Below, piece by piece: positions 27,756 to 62,861 of a stretch of 64,000 nt of DNA. Positions within the stretch are counted from its first letter, which is position 1. Each line of letters begins with the position of its first letter. The stretch lies in IMG/VR virus record IMGVR_UViG_2724679236_000008; one strand, written 5' to 3'. The stretch comes from a virus. Lineage: Duplodnaviria; Heunggongvirae; Uroviricota; Caudoviricetes. Made by a program: the position numbers and the translations under genes. Below the pieces are notes generated by a model that was not told the origin of the DNA, made no database searches, and saw only the letters and a program-made list of their open reading frames with translations.

Positions 27756-28104
27756 GTTGTAACCCTTGAATATCAACCACAGAAAGCTCGTCTTTGTAGA
27801 AAAAGGCCAGGTTGTGGCACCCCCTCGTTTGAGCGTATGAGCTGGGACCAATTTCGTTCTTCCAGACAAATGGCTTCAAATCCGTACGGCGAAGCATAAA
27901 AACGCGATTTGTTCCGCTCTGATTCCCAATGAGGCAAAAGCCTTCTTTCACCTTGATAGCCTGCAAGTTGTCGAGTTCACCGCTGGTTACACGGCTATCG
28001 AACTCCTTGCGGCTTATTAGCTCCATCTGCATCTGACGACTCCAAACAAATGCCCATTGAAGGGCGATGGCTGAATGGTACCGAAAACACTGCATAAAAA
28101 ACAA
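27748..28104 (-). CDS. hypothetical protein, up to 118 aa
   Basis: ORF immediately upstream of the RdgC-like gene; start uncertain. Confidence 0.4.
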
Positions 28105-28120
28105 TATTTATTAGAGCAAT
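28104..28120. promoter_or_regulatory. C1-operator-like 17-mer (16/17) in divergent intergenic region
   Basis: atatttattagagcaat; a weaker half-site at 28176-28190. Confidence 0.5.
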
Positions 28121-28201
28121 TTTGTAATAAGAAAACACCATTAAGACCACAAATAACATAAGGTAAAATAACGAAAATTAGAGCAAATAATTGGTGATGA
28201 C

Positions 28202-28486
28202 GTGGCAAGTATTGCAACAAAAGACAGCATTTGTTCGGGGCACGGAGGATTCCCATCCAGGCCTCCTGTAGAAAGTGAACCACTACTTAAAGTCAACGGA
28301 GTCGAAGTGTTAGTTGATGGTAAGCAATATGCACAGCATACCGATGGAAACAGTACGCACGGTGGGCAAGCTATATCAACCAGGGCATGGTTTACCGTCA
28401 ATGGTAAAGGGGTCGTATGCGTTGGTGACCCTGTTTCATGCGGCTCTACCGTAGCGTCAGGAGACGGCCTGGTTCAGGTAAGTTAG
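28202..28486 (+). CDS. PAAR-like spike-tip protein, 94 aa
   Basis: Repeated ...VNG(K)...GD...C...G...V pattern (LKVNGVEVLVDG, FTVNGKGVVCVGDPVSCGS) characteristic of PAAR-like domains. Confidence 0.5.
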   Translation: MASIATKDSICSGHGGFPSRPPVESEPLLKVNGVEVLVDGKQYAQHTDGNSTHGGQAISTRAWFTVNGKGVVCVGDPVSCGSTVASGDGLVQVS

Positions 28487-28494
28487 GAGATATC

Positions 28495-29283
28495 ATGCTG
28501 GAAAAAGACTACCAGTTATCCGCATATAAAAAATTGGCCGCAGCCGGTGGGATGAAAACACCTGGTGCCATAACATCGGCACGAAACAGTGCTAACACGG
28601 CAAAACAGCTTGCAGAAGAATTGATCGGATTAATTTTGGATACAATTGTCTATCCCGACACTATTACCAGCTATGTTTCAACGATCAGAACAACCACAAC
28701 CGGCTTAACGAACATTGGAGAACTGGCAACTAAGCACGCGGACCTGTTGGCTGGTTATGCAGATCTGTCAATGCTGCTTCAACTCGATATTGGTTGGGAT
28801 GTTTACTGCCGTGCTAATGAGCGAGAAGTATCAGAACTGCCGATCTCTATTGCCATTGGTGATGTGACTATTACTAAATCGCTTGAGGATGCTGTAAACG
28901 CGCTTAATACATCAAGTTTAGTCGCTGCTATGGGGGAGATTAACCAGACCCTTAACACTGGCTCAGGAAGCTCGTCAGGCTCTGGTTCAGGCGGCGGCAC
29001 TGCCACTCCCCCACCAGCACTAACAGAAGAGCAAATTGAATCTCTGAAAGTAGCAACTGAACAGTTTGGGGTTGTTTTCAACCAGACAACAGCGCCCACA
29101 ACTGCGTTACAACAGCAGTATGAACGAGCGAATGAAAGCGCCAACGTAGCCATAACTGCTTATAACCATGCTATCGGTACCGCGCTTGCGGAAGCATCAG
29201 CAAATAAGGCCAGCACAGCCAGCGCAGTCGCCGCTTTGGTTCCTGATTCTGTTCTTGATGAATTAAACAAAGCGGCACAGTAA
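28495..29283 (+). CDS. hypothetical protein with central Gly/Ser linker, 262 aa
   Basis: ATG at 28495 after AGGAGA; GSGSSSGSGSGGGTATPPPA linker between two helical regions. Confidence 0.55.
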   Translation: MLEKDYQLSAYKKLAAAGGMKTPGAITSARNSANTAKQLAEELIGLILDTIVYPDTITSYVSTIRTTTTGLTNIGELATKHADLLAGYADLSMLLQLDIGWDVYCRANEREVSELPISIAIGDVTITKSLEDAVNALNTSSLVAAMGEINQTLNTGSGSSSGSGSGGGTATPPPALTEEQIESLKVATEQFGVVFNQTTAPTTALQQQYERANESANVAITAYNHAIGTALAEASANKASTASAVAALVPDSVLDELNKAAQ

Positions 29284-29322
29284 CAAAGGACTTCATTGAT
29301 AATTTTTCTTCAGGAGGAAGAC

Positions 29323-29745
29323 ATGTCATTCTTTTCTACGTTAAAAACAGCTTTGTCTTTGAAGGAGAAACTTGCTGCTACTGGTGTTCTTGTTCTGATT
29401 TGCGCACTTGTTGGTGCTGGGTTTGCATGGGAACGTCATCAGCTAAAGCAAGCCTTAGAGAAAGTTAACCGCCTCGATCAGGCTGTTAAGGAACGTGATA
29501 AGTCAATCAGCGAGCTTAATCAGACCATTGAGACGATGAACAAAGCGGATCAACATTTTCACAGCCAGGAAGTGAAAAATGAATCAGAACAAGCCAAGTA
29601 TGCTGACAGGCAAATGGAGCGAAAAGCAGAAGTTCAGAAACAACTGGTTGCGGCGGGTAATGTTCGCCAGCGCATTCCTGCTGACACTCAGCGGTTGCTC
29701 CGGGAGTCGATCAGCGAATTTAACTCCGACGCCGACAAAGGTTAA
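29323..29745 (+). CDS. Rz-like i-spanin candidate (N-terminal TM helix plus coiled coil), 140 aa
   Basis: AGGAGG RBS; MSFFSTLKTALSLKEKLAATGVLVLICALVGAGFAW TM segment followed by coiled-coil; overlapped by a lipoprotein ORF in +1 frame. Confidence 0.5.
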   Translation: MSFFSTLKTALSLKEKLAATGVLVLICALVGAGFAWERHQLKQALEKVNRLDQAVKERDKSISELNQTIETMNKADQHFHSQEVKNESEQAKYADRQMERKAEVQKQLVAAGNVRQRIPADTQRLLRESISEFNSDADKG

Positions 29746-29911
29746 CCACCCTGCCCCCAAAAGTGCGTTTATGTGCAGGATGCCAGAGTTTAGCAGTGAA
29801 TATTTTGATGATCTGCCAGCGTATATCCTCGATACAGAAACGATGCTGATGGGGATTAACAGGAAGAATCGCAACGTCAATGATTACAACCGTGCTATCA
29901 GCGGTAACTAA
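29660..29911 (+). CDS. Rz1-like o-spanin candidate (lipoprotein, Pro-rich), 83 aa
   Basis: Lipobox LLTLSGC, then SGSRSANLTPTPTKVNHPAPKS; starts inside the 3' end of the Rz-like gene in another frame. Confidence 0.45.
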   Translation: MFASAFLLTLSGCSGSRSANLTPTPTKVNHPAPKSAFMCRMPEFSSEYFDDLPAYILDTETMLMGINRKNRNVNDYNRAISGN

Positions 29912-29922
29912 AAGGGATTTTT

Positions 29923-30315
29923 ATGTCTGATAAAGTAACAGTTAAGCAAACTATCAACAAAGCGACTTCAATCTACAAAATTGAGCAAATCACTGTTGGC
30001 AAGCCAGGATCTGAACAATACCGTCATGCTTTCGAGCTTGCCGATCAGCTTGGTTTAAAACACCCGGATTGCATCGAGCATGTATTTCCTACCTATGCTG
30101 ATGAGCAATGTACTCATGTTCTTACCGAAGAGGATTTTTTCAGCACTGAAGAACGAGAAGGCGTTGATCGCTGCATTGGTGTGATTTGTTCTTCGGTAAG
30201 TGATGAGTTATTCCCTAATGTGCCTGAATATGGTGGTATTGGATACCAATTCCTGTACGAGGGCGATGAGCTTAAATGCTATGAACATGGTCTTCTCATC
30301 GAAAGCGTAGAATAA
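29923..30315 (+). CDS. hypothetical protein, 130 aa
   Basis: ORF with plausible RBS; followed by terminator 30331-30352. Confidence 0.5.
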   Translation: MSDKVTVKQTINKATSIYKIEQITVGKPGSEQYRHAFELADQLGLKHPDCIEHVFPTYADEQCTHVLTEEDFFSTEEREGVDRCIGVICSSVSDELFPNVPEYGGIGYQFLYEGDELKCYEHGLLIESVE

Positions 30316-30330
30316 TACCCTTCCTTCCAA

Positions 30331-30352
30331 CCGGCTATGTTGGCCGGTTTTT
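30331..30352 (+). terminator. rho-independent terminator
   Basis: ccggctatgttggccgg followed by ttttt. Confidence 0.55.
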
Positions 30353-30354
30353 CA

Positions 30355-30440
30355 CTTATCCACATTATCCACTGGGTAGATCCAATAATTAGGTCCATAC
30401 AGATCCCAATTAGATCCATATAGATCCCTGATCGTTGCAG
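30355..30440. promoter_or_regulatory. plasmid origin oriR elements: tandem DnaA boxes and GATC-containing heptamer repeats
   Basis: TTATCCACA (30357-30365) and TTATCCACT (30366-30374); repeated (t/c)agatcc units and tgatcg at 30377-30435. Confidence 0.7.
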
Positions 30441-55204: not shown

Positions 55205-58123
55205 ATGAATGACGTTACAGTTGTCACATCGGTTACTTACCCATCACCCGAGTCGTTGGCTCTGGTGGCTGATGTGCAATACCACGAACCATATCTGTCA
55301 GCCGCGCTAAACCGAAAATTCAGGGGAATTGTTGACCCGGGATTTTATGCTGGTTTCTTGCCTAAGCCTGGCGGTGGGATGAACCTGTTAATCACCTCAG
55401 TGGATGGTGATAAAACCGCTGGCGCGGCGTCAGTGGATATTGGAGAATTCTACCAAGTAACTATTCAGCACCGTAAGGATATTTCTCTTGCACTTAGCGC
55501 AGGTAAGAAATATGCAATTGTGCTGAAGGGAAGATACCTCCTTGGAGAGGATACCTATCAGGTTAATACCGCGTCACATATTCATGCGGCTGAATTTATT
55601 GCCAGAACTTATACCGATTCATATCAGTTAGGAGATGGGGAGTTACTTGTTTGTACGGTAAATATCCCTGCTGGCGTATCTGCCATTACCCAGGAGATGA
55701 TTGATACATCTGAGCGTATCAACCGCACGATCGGCATTGAAATATCAGACTCTGTAACCAGCACCAGAAGTGATGTTGCGGCAAGTTCGCTGGCAGTTAA
55801 AAAAGCCTACGATCTGGCGAAAAGTAAGTATACGGCGCAGGATGCAAGCACAACGCAAAAGGGATTAGTTCAGCTCAGTAGCACAATTGACAGCGACAGC
55901 GAAACAATGGCGGCCACCCCTAAAGCCGTTAAGTCTGTAAAAGAACTGGCTGATACCAAAGCGCCAATAGAAAGCCCGAATCTGACAGGGAAACCAGGTG
56001 CCCCGACTGCGGCCCCAGGTACAAACAGTAATCAGATCGCGAATACAGCATTTGTTCATGCAGCTATAAGCGCGCTTATCAACGGCGCCCCGGGAACACT
56101 GGATACGCTGAAAGAAATTGCTGCTGCTATCAACAACGATCCGAAGTTCAGCACGACTATCAATAATGCGCTGAATCTTAAGGCTCCTTTAGCAAGCCCT
56201 GCATTCACCGGAATACCTACCGCGCCTACAGCACCGCAGGGTACAAATAATACACAGATAGCAACGACTGCTTATGTTAGGGCGGCTATTTCCGCATTGG
56301 TCGGTTCATCTCCTGAAGCTCTGGATACTCTGAATGAGTTAGCTGCGGCGCTTGGCAATGACCCGAACTTTGCGACAACCATGACCAATGCACTGGCAGG
56401 GAAACAGCCTCTTGATGCAACCTTAACCGCGCTCGCTGCCCTTGCGACTGGTGCAAATAAACTGCCTTATTTCACCGGTAAGGATACGGTAGCGCAGACT
56501 GATTTAACGTCAGTCGGTCGCGATATTCTGGCTAAAACAAGCACACTGGCCGTTATCCAATACCTTGGTTTAAGAGAACTTGGCACAAGCGGTGAAAAGA
56601 TCCCCCTGTTGAGCACGGCTAACACATGGAGTGCACGCCAGACTTTCAACGGTGGGATCACCGGGGCGCTGACAGGGAACGCCGACACCGCGACGAAATT
56701 AAAAACAGCACGGAAGATTAATAATGCCCCGTTTGACGGTTCAGCTGATATTAATATCAACACTCTGGTGTCGCGTGGTCGCGTAACGGCTCTGGAGGCG
56801 AATGCACAGGGAGCATCAGGGATTCAACTGTATGAGGCCTACAATAATGGCTATCCTTCTACCTATGGCAATGTGCTTCACCTTAAAGGTGCCACCGCTG
56901 CTGGCGAAGGTGAGTTATTCATTGGCTGGAGTGGCACGAGCGGTGCCCATGCGCCAGTACATATTCGTTCGCGGCGGGATACTGATTCTGCCAGCTGGTC
57001 AGAATGGGCACAAATTTATACGTCAAAAGACTCAGTTCCTGGTGTTAATACCAAAGGCAATCAAGACACGACAGGTAATGCTGCCACCGCCACAAGATTG
57101 CAGACGGCGCACACTATCAACGGCGTCTCGTTTGATGGTTCTGAAGATATTGAACTAACGGCGGAAGATTTAAATCTCGAACAAACAGTAGAGTTAGCTG
57201 CTGGAGCATTGCAGAAAAACCAGAACGGCGCAGATATTCCAAACAAAGATAAATTTACGCAAACAATAGGTGCTTGCCGCTCTTTTCATAGCTCTATCAG
57301 CACAGGTGCAGGAAACTGGACGACGGCGCAATTTATTGAATGGCTGGAATCTCAGTGGGCCTTCAATCATCCATACTGGCTGTGTAAATGCTCATGGTCA
57401 TACGGCAATAATAAAATTATTACTGACACCGGATGTGGACTTATTCACCTTGCGGGTTGCGTTATTGAAGTTATGGGCAATAAAGGCGCCATGACCATTC
57501 GTATAACCACACCGAGTACCTCTAGCAGTGGTGGCACCACTAATGCGCAATTTATATATATTAACCACGGTTCAGAGTATTTACCTGGCTGGCGACGTGA
57601 CTACAACACGAAAAATCAGCAGGCCGCTTTTGCTTTAGGGCAAACAGGAAGCACTGTCGGAAATGATAAAGCTGTTGGCTGGAACTGGAATAGCGGGGTA
57701 TATAACGCAAATATTGGTGGCGCATCGACATTAATCCTCCACTTCAATATGAACGCGGGTAGCTGCCCTGCTGTACAGTTCCGCGTAAATTATAAGAACG
57801 GTGGTATTTATTATCGTTCAGCGCGTGATGGTTATGGCTTCGAGGCTGACTGGTCAGAGTTTTACACCACAACCCGAAAACCTTCAGCGGCAGATGTTGG
57901 GGCATATACTAAAGCGGAATGTAATACGCGGTTTATTACAGGTATTCGATTAGGTACAAAATCATCAGCGCAAACATGGAATGGTCCTGGCTGGGGCGAT
58001 AAATCAGGTTACGTTGTTACAGGTTCCGTTAACTCAAACAAAGATGAACTTATTGATACAACACAGGCAAGGCCAGTGCAATATTGTATCAATGGCACCT
58101 GGTATAATGCGGGAAGTATTTAA
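55205..58123 (+). CDS. tail fibre protein S (constant part plus currently joined variable part Sv), about 972 aa
   Basis: ATG 55205 after AAGGA; internal tandem repeats (NTAFVHAAISALINGAPGTLDTLKE / TTAYVRAAISALVGSSPEALDTLNE); cix site at 56553-56578 inside the gene. Confidence 0.8.
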   Translation: MNDVTVVTSVTYPSPESLALVADVQYHEPYLSAALNRKFRGIVDPGFYAGFLPKPGGGMNLLITSVDGDKTAGAASVDIGEFYQVTIQHRKDISLALSAGKKYAIVLKGRYLLGEDTYQVNTASHIHAAEFIARTYTDSYQLGDGELLVCTVNIPAGVSAITQEMIDTSERINRTIGIEISDSVTSTRSDVAASSLAVKKAYDLAKSKYTAQDASTTQKGLVQLSSTIDSDSETMAATPKAVKSVKELADTKAPIESPNLTGKPGAPTAAPGTNSNQIANTAFVHAAISALINGAPGTLDTLKEIAAAINNDPKFSTTINNALNLKAPLASPAFTGIPTAPTAPQGTNNTQIATTAYVRAAISALVGSSPEALDTLNELAAALGNDPNFATTMTNALAGKQPLDATLTALAALATGANKLPYFTGKDTVAQTDLTSVGRDILAKTSTLAVIQYLGLRELGTSGEKIPLLSTANTWSARQTFNGGITGALTGNADTATKLKTARKINNAPFDGSADININTLVSRGRVTALEANAQGASGIQLYEAYNNGYPSTYGNVLHLKGATAAGEGELFIGWSGTSGAHAPVHIRSRRDTDSASWSEWAQIYTSKDSVPGVNTKGNQDTTGNAATATRLQTAHTINGVSFDGSEDIELTAEDLNLEQTVELAAGALQKNQNGADIPNKDKFTQTIGACRSFHSSISTGAGNWTTAQFIEWLESQWAFNHPYWLCKCSWSYGNNKIITDTGCGLIHLAGCVIEVMGNKGAMTIRITTPSTSSSGGTTNAQFIYINHGSEYLPGWRRDYNTKNQQAAFALGQTGSTVGNDKAVGWNWNSGVYNANIGGASTLILHFNMNAGSCPAVQFRVNYKNGGIYYRSARDGYGFEADWSEFYTTTRKPSAADVGAYTKAECNTRFITGIRLGTKSSAQTWNGPGWGDKSGYVVTGSVNSNKDELIDTTQARPVQYCINGTWYNAGSI
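56553..56578. other. cixL-like recombination site (Cin/Gin-type crossover site)
   Basis: ttatccaataccttggtttaagagaa; flanking sequence repeated in inverted orientation ending at 61050. Confidence 0.55.
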
Positions 58124-58125
58124 TT

Positions 58126-58659
58126 ATGATGCATTTAAAAAATATTAAAGCAGGAAACCCCAAAACCGTAGAACAATATGAATTAACACGACAATTTGGC
58201 GTTGTCTGGTTGTATTCTGATGACGATAGAAACTGGTATGAGGAACAGAAAAACTTTCAGGGAGATACAATAAAAATTGCTTACACTGCCGATGGAATCA
58301 TTGTGGCTGTAGATAAGGATGTATCGACAATTAATCCCGAAGGTTTAAGCGTTGTTGAGGTTCCTGATATTACAGCCAATAGGCGGGCCGATATTTCTGG
58401 TAACTGGCTGTTCAAAGATGGGGCGGTGATAAAGCGAACTTATACCGGAGAAGAACAGAGGCAACAGGCGGAAAATGAGAAGCAAAACCTGTTACAACTC
58501 GTCAGGGATAAAACTCAGCTATGGGATTCTCAGCTACGACTTGGAATTATTTCTGCTGAGAATAAACAAAAATTAACCGAGTGGATGCTCTACGCACAGA
58601 AAGTTGAATCCATAGACATCTCTATCCTACCAGTAACATTTCCCGAACAACCAGAATGA
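58126..58659 (+). CDS. tail fibre assembly protein U, 177 aa
   Basis: Downstream of S; mirrored by inverted alternative U' on reverse strand. Confidence 0.7.
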   Translation: MMHLKNIKAGNPKTVEQYELTRQFGVVWLYSDDDRNWYEEQKNFQGDTIKIAYTADGIIVAVDKDVSTINPEGLSVVEVPDITANRRADISGNWLFKDGAVIKRTYTGEEQRQQAENEKQNLLQLVRDKTQLWDSQLRLGIISAENKQKLTEWMLYAQKVESIDISILPVTFPEQPE

Positions 58660-58686
58660 GAGAAGGCCCGCATCGGGCCTTAATTT

Positions 58687-59100
58687 TTACTCTGGTTTTT
58701 GTGGCCATTCTGGCTTTGCCGTATCCACGCGGCTGAGCAGAACGCTGTAACGTTCCCAGGATTCCAGTTGGCTACGCTCCTCATCCGTCGCCATATTCAG
58801 TCTGACAGCTCGTTCCAGTGGCAATATGATAGACTCCGCTTCTGTCAGAAGCTTAGATTTTTTCCTCTCCGCTTGCCAGATTAAGTCAGCTTGGGTTGGT
58901 GGTTCTGGTTCCATTAAAACTGGTTGACCGTATTCATTTGAATTGATTTTTTTACCTTCTGATTGTTTATCCAGGAGATAATGATACCAGCGGTCTGATA
59001 TTTCAATAGCATCATCAGGCCATGCACCATTAATATCATAATCGCTTTTTAGATTATCATCATAAAAACCATTTGTTGACGGGCTGTAATAAATTGTCAT
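58687..59100 (-). CDS. alternative tail fibre assembly protein U' (inverted copy), 137 aa
   Basis: Reverse-strand ORF inside the invertible segment. Confidence 0.65.
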
Positions 59101-59101
59101 A

Positions 59102-61006
59102 TTAGTAACCTATAGCTGTCCAGTACATATTGCCGTTACCCTCACTGTTAAATTTTGTTCCGGTTCTGGATAGTGAGTTAACAGCAATGCTGTAGTCAAA
59201 ACGACCATGCGCGTTAGTGATTGTTATGCTTGTACAGGCAGAGGGAAAAGCTATTGGAAATGTTAACCCTGCTCCAGCATTAGAAATATATCCCCACTGC
59301 GTAATAATTCCTGTAGAGACATCTTTATGCCAGCCATTCGCCGCTTTGAACGCGGTATTTTTAGCCTGATAACGGGAGTCAAAATTACCGTAATCTGACG
59401 GGTTAACACGCCCACTAATATTCAGTAGTTTATTACTTTGAATACTTCCACTCGTAAAGCGGAAAACATGGGCATTGTTAGCATAAACATCAAGAACACC
59501 ATCGCCATTTTGCTTTAAACCAGTATCACCATCACCCAGAACAATGGAGTTACCTCCTAAAGCGTTTGCCGTTCTTATACCAAGTGCGCCGTTCAACTGG
59601 CCGCCAGATAACGGCAATGCCCCAACTTCAGCGGCAGTAGGTCTAATATGCGAACTGTAAATTACATAAACCGTTCCATCAGTCAGGCCTGTCGGTTTAT
59701 TCGCTGTATAAGTTGGTGATGTATGAATTTGTACAGTGGCATCCTTTGTATAATCCCACTGGATATTAACACCCGTGGCGTAATTACCTATTTCTACATA
59801 AATGTCATAGGTATCACCGGATGTATTCACCCATGCAAAATTAGTAAATCCTGATGATGTCCGCCGCCATAATGCACCAGTGATGCCTTTAGGGTTTCCA
59901 TTGCCAGCACGTAAAACAAGTTCAGATATACCCGCCTGCTGCGGGGAACCGACATTATATCCAGCACCACCAATCAGGCTTACATAAACCACGGAACTGG
60001 CCTGTGGCATAGTTACAGTCGCCAGTTTGAACCATCCTGCACCGCCATTAAAGGATATGGTTGTTGAATTTGTTGTCCCGATGTTGCGCAGGAATAATTT
60101 TTTATCAGGAATATCTGCACCGTTCTGGTTTTTCTGCAATGCTCCAGCAGCTAACTCTACTGTTTGTTCGAGATTTAAATCTTCCGCCGTTAGTTCAATG
60201 TCTTCAGAACCATCAAACGAGACGCCGTTGATAGTACATGCTGTCTGCAACTTGGTCGCTGTCGCTGCATTACCGGTAGTGTCTTGATTACCTTTTGTAT
60301 TCACACCAGGCAAATCTATATCGGCTGAACCATCAAAGGATACACCACCTATGTTTATTGAACTTGCTAATTTCGTTGCTGTTGCTGCATTTCCTGAAAG
60401 GCTTGAAACAAACTGATGTGAGCAGTAATAACCACGTCCATTTTTAAAATCCAGAATGGTTTGAGTATTTGTACTTTCTGCTACTGGATCTGTGGCCCCC
60501 CACTTATAGGTGGCTTGACCAACGGTATAGTCAGTAGTTGGAACAATTACGTTCAAGCCCTCCTCAGCAAATATCTTGATAGGAAATGCTCTGGCTTCAA
60601 CGTAAAATACACTACACAAATCGTCATCTTTCACACTTGAAATAATCGAGTGTATAGCTCGCTCAGCAGTAGAATATATTGAGAAAAAACCAGCCGCATA
60701 TGAACCGCGATCAGACCAACCGCCAGGCATAACAAACCCATTAAATTCACAATTATTCATGGCGTATCCGCCAGCTGAGGAATAAGTAGTTATCACAACT
60801 CGTGAGGCTAATTCATCGGTACTGCCTCCAGATCGGCGAAAGACTATAGGATACCACTTACCGCTTACTGCATTTGCAGGCGCTGAAAAAGTGTATTTTC
60901 GCATCCCTTTTTTATTGTCTATTTCGCTTTTGCTGTAAACGTCCAGATCTTTAGGAGTCNNNNNNNNNNAAGTCTGGCGTGCACTCCATGTGTTAGCCGT
61001 GCTCAA
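59102..61006 (-). CDS. alternative tail-fibre variable segment Sv' (no independent start; joined to S constant part after inversion); contains assembly gap
   Basis: N-terminal [11 protein letters not shown] matches S residues at 56600-56640; internal [18 protein letters not shown]...[24 protein letters not shown] block matches S at 57040-57240; 10 N at 60960-60969. Confidence 0.6.
60960..60969. other. assembly gap (10 N) inside the inverted repeat
   Basis: Run of n characters. Confidence 1.
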
Positions 61007-61742: not shown

Positions 61743-62024
61743 ATGTTTGATTTCACAATAATGCTCCTCTCCATCCTTGGCGGGGTGCATTCGTTTCTGA
61801 ATGGGGTTCGTGAAAAACGTTACGAAGCGTCATGCAGGCAATTGATGGCCGAGTGTATTGCTGCCGTACTTGCAGGCTTTATAGGCATGTATTTCGCGGA
61901 ATATAAGGGTATGGATGAAAGTCTTCAGAATTGCGTGACTATTATTTGCAGCATCAATAACAGGCTCATTCTTGAAAAGTTACAAAGGATTATCGATTCG
62001 TACCTCAGTAGAAATGCCTCTTAA
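61743..62024 (+). CDS. small membrane protein (holin/antiholin-like), 93 aa
   Basis: Two hydrophobic helices; charged C-terminus. Confidence 0.4.
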   Translation: MFDFTIMLLSILGGVHSFLNGVREKRYEASCRQLMAECIAAVLAGFIGMYFAEYKGMDESLQNCVTIICSINNRLILEKLQRIIDSYLSRNAS

Positions 62025-62091
62025 GCAACAAATGACCGGTTGAGAAGTTACTTTGCATACCATTACCTCCTGACAACGTAGGAGGGAACTT

Positions 62092-62421
62092 GTGCTTGAC
62101 ACACAGGAATTAGCTCCAGTTGCTATTGCGCTCCTGCTTTCAGTAATTGGTGGGATAGGCACGTTCCTGATGGATGTCCGAGACGGTCGCCAGTCTGGCA
62201 ATTTGTTGGGATTGGTTACGGAGATCTTTGTTGCAGTGACAGCTGGCGCGGTGGCGTACCTATTGGGGCAACACGAGGGCTGGGAGTTATCAATTACGTA
62301 CTTAATGGTAACGATAGCCAGCAATAACGGTCATGAGGTGATTTCAGGGATGAAACGAGTGAATATCGATAGCATTCTGAATGTTCTTACAAGTTTGGTG
62401 AAAAAGGGAGGCGGGAAATGA
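62092..62421 (+). CDS. holin-like membrane protein, 109 aa
   Basis: Two or three TM helices (VAIALLLSVIGGIGTFL, IFVAVTAGAVAYLLG) and basic C-terminal tail. Confidence 0.45.
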   Translation: MLDTQELAPVAIALLLSVIGGIGTFLMDVRDGRQSGNLLGLVTEIFVAVTAGAVAYLLGQHEGWELSITYLMVTIASNNGHEVISGMKRVNIDSILNVLTSLVKKGGGK

Positions 62422-62861
62422 TTGGCTGGGGTGTATGCGCTCTTGCGGCAGCCTTAGCTGATCGCTATTTGCTAAAACGCAAGGACATCACGAATTTAGA
62501 GCTTGGTGATGTGGAAATTAAACCGGGATTTATCCGGGTGCCGTTCAAATATCGGTCTAAATTCCCGTTTTTGCGCGGTGCAACGGTCAGATATTGGATC
62601 CGTGATGTTCAGAAGCCGACGACAGTGATTGAAGGCGAACAACGTTGCCTGACGTCGGCTGAACAGGGCGAAAACAGTGAATGGTTGTACATACCCACTG
62701 AATATATGGGTAAAGGAGAACGACTGTGGCATTTCAACGTCATGGTTACGCACGGCGACTCGTTCATTAACCCGTTGTATCGGATTTTCCCTGTTACTCA
62801 GCAAATCCGCAGAAGTTACGTAATAAATCTCGCACAGGATGTGTCAGATGACGAAAAATAA
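62418..62861 (+). CDS. hypothetical protein, 147 aa
   Basis: Overlapping start with previous gene. Confidence 0.5.
   Translation: MIGWGVCALAAALADRYLLKRKDITNLELGDVEIKPGFIRVPFKYRSKFPFLRGATVRYWIRDVQKPTTVIEGEQRCLTSAEQGENSEWLYIPTEYMGKGERLWHFNVMVTHGDSFINPLYRIFPVTQQIRRSYVINLAQDVSDDEK

Follow-up and report, generated by a model that had tools for sequence, protein, structure and literature searches.

The overlapped ppfA/mlp gene pair of a P1-like phage-plasmid from Escherichia albertii, a predicted two-component spanin

The described pair of P1 and its counterpart on pEA4_97

The closest described relatives of the locus analysed here are ppfA and mlp of bacteriophage P1, two predicted spanin genes that partially overlap and stand in an operon unlinked to lyz and lydA/B (Bednarek et al. 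2022, PMC9025707). As that paper relates it, the P1 pair was identified by Summer et al. (2007) from predicted features. In the supplement of Kongari et al. (2018, PMC6139136), the pair appears as an 'ovl' (overlapped) i-spanin/o-spanin: gp064, the i-spanin, has 140 aa, 0 periplasmic Cys and 'one [Cys] in TMD', while gp063, the o-spanin, has 110 aa, a 39-aa signal, the lipobox TLSG, a mature part starting with CSG, and 1 periplasmic Cys. Its remarks on gp063 add that the signal is 'too long', that LipoP places the cleavage at the 39th position and that Prosite returned no match. In a survey of 77 P1-like phage-plasmids, both genes fall within the 21 that are most conserved (PMC9603915). The introduction of PMC9025707 gives the two labels the other way round, calling ppfA the o-spanin and mlp the i-spanin, whereas in the sequence the lipobox is found in mlp and the transmembrane domain in ppfA.

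The window, by which we mean the whole 64,000-nt stretch of DNA, is on its sequence a P1-like phage-plasmid. Positions 28100-30400 are 100% identical to the Escherichia albertii plasmid pEA4_97 (IncY, 97 kb) and are found in 765 plasmid records; in contrast to P1, the host replicon here is this E. albertii IncY plasmid. Over 801 bases around the pair, identity to P1 (NC_005856, 63265-64065) is 96.9%; the P1 record names the genes ppfA ('possible periplasmic function') and mlp ('membrane lipoprotein precursor'; 'Rz-like spanin' in RefSeq), and Rz/Rz1 is the label of the same pair in other P1-like phage records. At the protein level, identity to P1 was 94% for PpfA, 97% for Mlp and 100% for mature Mlp, the differences being allelic only (PpfA carries 8 substitutions, the Mlp signal peptide 3). 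The 167-nt overlap, the ribosome-binding sites and the lipobox are as in P1, and so is the gene order, with dmt-hrdC-uhr on the other strand, the divergent upfC-upfB-ppfA-mlp-upfA, and then oriR-repA-parAB. By sequence match and synteny, the two genes are orthologues of P1 ppfA and mlp (phrog_89 and phrog_30284, respectively). The first-pass annotation had placed the pair between the methyltransferase region and the plasmid replicon, and we found the dmt operon on one side and oriR/repA on the other, which is the normal P1 arrangement. The pair is thus not novel, but an already known, catalogued predicted spanin of P1-like phages in its usual P1 position.

Gene layout and properties of PpfA and Mlp

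The coordinates of the features are collected in Table 1. The limits first proposed for the pair were exact, 29323 being the first base of the ppfA ATG and 29911 the last base of the mlp stop codon. The two genes are adjacent, and mlp is read in the +1 frame relative to ppfA, starting 256 nt into it. The lipoprotein gene had been described as embedded, which did not hold: the architecture is overlapped, with 167 nt of mlp inside ppfA and a further 166 nt (55 codons) past the ppfA stop. The Shine-Dalgarno motif of ppfA is the one given for P1 gp064 (Kongari et al. 2018 supplement, PMC6139136), and that of mlp reads AGGAGG in divergent relatives.

Table 1. Positions of the ppfA/mlp pair, its transcription unit and the holin-region genes in the window
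Feature	Position	Strand	Basis or remark
Sigma-70-like promoter ahead of upfC	28141..28169	+	Consensus scan; no more sites than in shuffled sequence
upfC, PAAR-like	28202-28486	+	P1 note: similar to T4 gp5.4
upfB, 281 aa, Gly/Ser-rich linker	28438-29283	+	Apparently co-transcribed with ppfA/mlp
Shine-Dalgarno AGGAGG of ppfA	29312..29317	+	5 nt 5' of ATG; read from sequence
ppfA, predicted i-spanin	29323..29745	+	ATG at 29323, 140 aa plus stop; ORF
PpfA transmembrane segment (predicted), residues 17-36	29371..29430	+	Kyte-Doolittle maximum 2.35 at residues 17-35
Shine-Dalgarno AGGAAG of mlp, inside ppfA	29567..29572	+	6 nt 5' of ATG
mlp, predicted o-spanin precursor	29579..29911	+	ATG at 29579, 110 aa plus stop; ORF
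ppfA/mlp overlap	29579-29745	+	167 nt common to both ORFs
Mlp signal peptide (predicted), 39 aa, unusually long	29579..29695	+	Basic n-region, h-region VMFASAFLLTL, lipobox L-S-G
Mlp lipobox L-S-G	29687-29695	+	End of signal peptide
Cys for lipid modification (predicted), +1 of mature Mlp	29696..29698	+	Invariant in all relatives examined
Mature Mlp, 71 aa	29696..29908	+	Pro/Thr-rich N-terminal part, then C-terminal motifs EYFDDLPAY and INRKNRNVN
Second Cys of Mlp, mature residue 27, FMCRMP	29774..29776	+	Invariant, including distant relatives (FMCTMP, SMCTLP)
Intrinsic-terminator-like hairpin after upfA	30329..30349	+	9 pairs, then T-rich tail (6 T in 10 bases shown)
lydC, holin homologue	61743-62021	+	tblastn with P1 protein
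lydA, holin	62092-62418	+	tblastn with P1 protein
lydB, antiholin	62418-62858	+	tblastn with P1 protein

The larger product, PpfA, has a single strongly hydrophobic stretch (LAATGVLVLICALVGAGFAW), in agreement with the transmembrane segment that had been claimed for it. As a 19-residue Kyte-Doolittle mean, its peak compares with 2.63 for lambda Rz, and it is preceded by a short N-terminus carrying K8, K14 and K16, so that the protein has the single N-terminal transmembrane domain, N-in/C-out, of an i-spanin as used by Summer et al. (2007) and Kongari et al. (2018). The only Cys of PpfA sits in this segment, leaving 0 in the periplasmic part. An AlphaFold2 model built from a 14-sequence alignment places helices at residues 13-111 and 120-138 with a break at GNVRQRIP; with a mean pLDDT of only 66, which is modest, it suggests with modest confidence that the periplasmic domain is largely alpha-helical, as expected of a spanin. 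These features support the prediction of PpfA as a type II helical protein of the inner membrane.

The N-terminus of Mlp is MNQNKPSMLTGKWSEKQKFRNNWLRRVMFASAFLLTLSG followed directly by CSGS, and the stretch from the signal to the predicted cleavage site is RRVMFASAFLLTLSG, with the Cys (residue 40) next. The first-pass annotation had called a lipobox LLTLSGC and proposed a signal peptidase II prediction as the check; the call was confirmed by the core PROSITE PS51257 pattern, found as ASAFLLTLSGC, and by the published LipoP cleavage at 39. Cys40 falls outside PROSITE's positional window, in agreement with the report of no Prosite hit and LipoP cleavage at 39 by Kongari et al. The Ser at +2 predicts sorting to the outer membrane; Mlp thus has the lipobox and Cys expected of a signal peptidase II substrate and, at +2, no signal for retention in the inner membrane. 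The description of the lipoprotein as Pro-rich stood in modest form only, with 6 Pro among the 71 mature residues, all within the first 31, as compared with 10 of 41 in lambda Rz1. The second Cys, at mature residue 27, is a candidate for the homotypic disulfide that spanins require, and with PpfA having none it is the periplasmic Cys available for an intermolecular bond.

The reality of the overlapping frame was judged from shuffled and from related sequences. When the synonymous codons of ppfA were shuffled, a +1-frame signal peptide plus lipobox (charged n-region, hydrophobic core and lipobox) arose in 27/20,000 sequences, while a +1 frame open over such a length was present in about 50%, and openness alone is therefore uninformative. 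Divergent loci in which PpfA is 57-62% identical (L004-L008) retain the +1 ORF (108-109 aa); its ATG is in the corresponding position after an AGGAGG motif, and the lipobox (L[SN][GA]C), the Cys in FMCRMPE and the motifs EYFDDLPAY and INRKNRN are present as well; the ATG with a ribosome-binding site at the mlp start position was separately noted for L004-L007. The same features were kept in the remote relatives P0106 (E 7e-25; L090-L092) and P0110 (E 9e-10; L093) from the profile search, so that the +1-frame lipoprotein with its ATG, ribosome-binding site, lipobox and additional Cys persists in relatives down to about 30% identity. Where mlp does not overlap ppfA, 5/5 differences from P1 fall at codon position 3 and change zero amino acids. 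Compared with the divergent loci, this part has 19-28 differences at the third position and, for the first two positions combined, 15-17. Both genes were intact in 80/80 IMG/VR P1-like loci; a script flagged one of these for an Asn in the Mlp h-region, where the genes are still intact. These comparisons point to strong purifying selection on both frames across the relatives.

That only ppfA is real, with the lipoprotein ORF a chance by-product of its sequence, would be compatible with a +1 frame this long being open in about half of the shuffles and with the PGAP call in the source plasmid record, which is a 46-aa mlp stub only. The rarity of the signal-peptide-plus-lipobox motif in the shuffles, the third-position bias of the 55 mlp codons outside ppfA, and the start codon, ribosome-binding site, lipobox and second Cys kept in all relatives speak against it. 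The comparative data refute this reading, to which we assign a negligible probability; conservation among the relatives is decisive in setting mlp apart, as a gene, from a chance frame.

Public data also contain fused ORFs of the pair. PpfA::Mlp fusions of 195 aa (variants of 193 and 169) occur as P0002, P0010, P0031, P0039, P0044, P0046, P0053, P0074 and P0077, with the frame switch at varied points of 29579-29745, and some of the clusters have 18-31 members. They are consistent with independent single-base deletions, and may reflect either errors of sequencing or genuine alleles, fused or with loss of function. The region 3' of mlp also varies: in divergent P1-like elements, a Gp49-like gene (PF13876) lies just after mlp, as in L004 (4600-4959), L005 (4600-4953) and L090 (5864-6226), and is itself followed by an upfA-sized gene in L004 and directly by repA in L005. 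In one E. albertii protein (P0004), the first 77 residues of Mlp are joined to a Gp49-like tail. The replicon-side region is a known insertion hot spot, with blaCTX-M-55 inserted in upfA of phage JL22 (PMC9603915).

Related families, lysis genes and transcription

PpfA matched the PHROG family phrog_89, 'Rz-like spanin', with an E-value of 7e-23 and, more weakly, the Rz-like spanin PHROGs 739, 214 and 2466, which lambda Rz also matches. Mlp matched phrog_30284, likewise 'Rz-like spanin', at E 1.8e-76, and phrog_456 at E 4e-5, the latter being matched by lambda Rz1 too. Lambda Rz and Rz1 themselves belong elsewhere (phrog_13 and phrog_3198, respectively), with weak cross-matches only to the P1-type proteins. 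Against the Pfam families, PpfA gave no match to Rz (PF03245 Phage_lysis, gathering 25.4 bits; lambda Rz 183 bits) and Mlp none to Rz1 (PF06085, gathering 27.9 bits; lambda Rz1 72 bits), even at E<=10, and a Pfam scan of both proteins returned sub-threshold coiled-coil noise only. BLASTP of PpfA with lambda Rz was not significant (E 0.22), nor was that of Mlp with lambda Rz1 (E 0.007), in which the alignment covers the signal peptide only. Membership in the lambda Rz/Rz1 sequence families was ruled out by these Pfam and pairwise comparisons.

The likeness to lambda Rz/Rz1 lies in the predicted topology and mechanism, namely a type II inner-membrane helical protein together with an outer-membrane lipoprotein in the +1 frame. 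In other respects the pairs differ: Rz1 is wholly embedded in Rz, whereas Mlp runs beyond ppfA; mature Rz1 has 41 aa and mature Mlp 71; Rz has two periplasmic Cys and PpfA none; and Rz/Rz1 come directly after S and R, while ppfA/mlp are about 32 kb from lydA/B. The best matches to curated families for both partners were to P2 LysB/LysC, which have the overlapped architecture in common with ppfA/mlp; PpfA scored 18.5 bits with LysB (NCBIfam TIGR03495, E 0.0019), far under the cut-off of 92.75, and Mlp 14.3 bits with LysC (NCBIfam NF038368, E 0.033), under the cut-off of 27, so that any similarity would be remote at most. The P2 genes lie in the lysis cassette. The T4 spanin genes pseT.3/pseT.2, according to the legend of Fig. 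8 in PMC6139136, are not near the holin and endolysin genes; they are separated and non-overlapping, in contrast to ppfA/mlp, and offer a precedent for an unlinked location.

In 50,697 phage records, tblastn matches were confined to P1-like phages and Cronobacter phage JK004, and the related-locus search returned near-identical P1-like loci only. The profile search of 1.84 billion representatives gave 32 matches, two of them remote and full-length, which belong to P1-like elements with the same synteny (L090-L092) and to a 1.2-kb contig (L093). PpfA and Mlp therefore seem to form a sequence family of their own that, in the searches made, is confined to P1-like elements, and as a result no guilt by association with endolysins can be obtained.

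The first-pass annotation had also remarked that the pair is away from any holin or endolysin. This was correct, as lydC, lydA and lydB are in the window but 31.8 kb downstream of mlp, and lyz is outside it. The products of the three genes are 97-100% identical to the P1 proteins, and the genes are the presumed lysis partners of ppfA/mlp in the window; tblastn with Lyz, LydD and LydE gave no match within the 64,000 nt. In P1, lyz/lydD/lydE are at 20.0-20.9 kb, lydA/B/C at 30.4-31.5 kb and ppfA/mlp at 63.4-63.9 kb. The pair thus stands outside a lysis cassette; placement inside one is usual for spanins but does not define them. Elsewhere in the window, a run of 10 N at 60960-60969 adjoins the invertible C-segment/cin region, and the tail-fibre C-segment (56555-58822) has only 83% identity to P1, which marks it as a variable host-range region.

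The promoter-like site before upfC and the hairpin after upfA suggest one transcription unit, upfC-upfB-ppfA-mlp-upfA. The former is a weak candidate for its start, because such sites were not more numerous than in shuffled sequence, and the latter is the likely end; in the P1 record, two additional sigma-70 promoters are predicted within upfB. A position weight matrix made from six annotated Lpa-dependent P1 late promoters recovered known late promoters elsewhere in the window, such as LPdar at 62045. Upstream of the ppfA/mlp unit on the + strand, it gave no convincing Lpa-type late promoter, the best scores being 10.3 and 9.5 as compared with 18-25 for genuine ones. The weak likenesses to the late motif (AAGTGACT, 5 nt, TAnAAT) were AAATAACATAAGGTAAAAT at 28151-28169, before upfC (score 10.3), and AAAGGACTTCATTGATAAT at 29285-29303, 20 nt before ppfA (score 9.5). 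The apparent co-transcription of the virion-tip-like upfC with the lysis genes ppfA/mlp is an odd mix.

Proposed function and alternatives

We read the locus as the ppfA/mlp genes of a P1-like phage-plasmid, encoding a two-component spanin of overlapped architecture, with a probability of about 0.85. The i-spanin/o-spanin reading of the first-pass annotation was upheld, as a prediction, by all of the sequence features that can be tested in silico and by the matches to spanin PHROGs. It draws on what we observed of the ORFs, the membrane and lipoprotein signals, the selection on both frames, the orthology with P1 and the synteny; the atypically long 39-aa signal, the lack of a periplasmic Cys in PpfA, the negative result with Pfam Rz and Rz1, the sub-threshold P2 LysB/LysC scores, the failure to find an Lpa-type late promoter and the modest confidence of the AlphaFold2 model count against it.

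The mechanism that we propose is taken from the analogy with lambda Rz/Rz1. PpfA would insert into the inner membrane by its N-terminal transmembrane helix, with the long helical domain extending out into the periplasm. After export, Mlp would receive its lipid from Lgt on Cys40, undergo cleavage by signal peptidase II and be delivered by Lol to the outer membrane, in its inner leaflet, as the Ser at +2 suggests; it may form a homodimer via its single conserved periplasmic Cys. Binding between the C-termini of PpfA and Mlp would give a complex that spans the periplasm and is restrained by the peptidoglycan mesh. After triggering of the holin LydA and degradation of the wall by the SAR-endolysin Lyz, the PpfA/Mlp complexes would collapse and fuse the inner and outer membranes, completing lysis. 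Spanins are harmless until the cell wall is degraded, as has been established for lambda. For this reason, linkage to the holin and endolysin genes would not be needed, and the lack of a late promoter does not contradict the spanin model, in which the timing of ppfA/mlp expression is a part that we infer.

Two other explanations of the pair share one experimental result. Spanins are dispensable under many laboratory conditions. P1 plating was not lowered when CRISPRi targeted mlp and ppfA (EOP 0.24/0.19 and 1.3/1.2, respectively), and both genes were classed as non-essential (PMC10695390). This fits the conditional dispensability of spanins but gives spanin function no support, and it would be expected as well if the pair were an envelope complex with a non-lysis role, expressed by the prophage and acting in superinfection exclusion, envelope remodelling or a plasmid-related process, its spanin anatomy being convergent. 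The grouping of the pair in one unit with the PAAR-like upfC, upfB and upfA beside the plasmid replicon, where only sigma-70-type promoters are predicted, together with the failure to find an Lpa-type late promoter upstream of that unit, points in the same direction. However, both partners match several independent 'Rz-like spanin' PHROGs and show all the architectural hallmarks of spanins, including the single conserved periplasmic Cys and the C-terminal motifs, and the T4 spanin genes, in the figure legend of PMC6139136, are also apart from the holin and endolysin genes. These points make a non-lysis role unlikely. To our knowledge, moreover, P1 has no other spanin candidate, which likewise argues against such a role.

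The non-essential class of both genes (PMC10695390) would also be explained if the pair were a decaying or redundant remnant that contributes little, with the P1 outer membrane disrupted by other means, and the several frameshifted PpfA::Mlp fusion ORFs of 193-195 aa, switching frame at different points of the overlap, could be taken as signs of decay. This is hard to reconcile with the strong purifying selection on both frames in relatives down to about 30% identity, with the intact genes of all 80 IMG/VR loci, or with the place of both among the 21 most conserved genes of P1-like phage-plasmids (PMC9603915), and we hold it to be highly improbable. There is a small chance that PpfA/Mlp is not, or not only, a late lysis device and is sigma-70-transcribed with the PAAR-like upfC, upfB and upfA beside the plasmid replicon. 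In that event, the pair would act in the lysogen or during infection, for instance in envelope tethering or exclusion. Less probably still, the recurrent frameshift fusions of PpfA to Mlp are functional variants and not errors.

In the source record of pEA4_97 (NZ_CP117679.1), PGAP labels ppfA (29323-29745) 'hypothetical protein' and gives mlp only as a 46-aa stub (29771-29911) without the signal peptide and the lipobox; 'hypothetical protein' is the sole label at this place in most of the 765 matching plasmid records. Taken together, these labels indicate that the annotation of a known predicted spanin pair is deficient in hundreds of P1-like plasmid records, and the importance of the pair here goes little beyond annotation.
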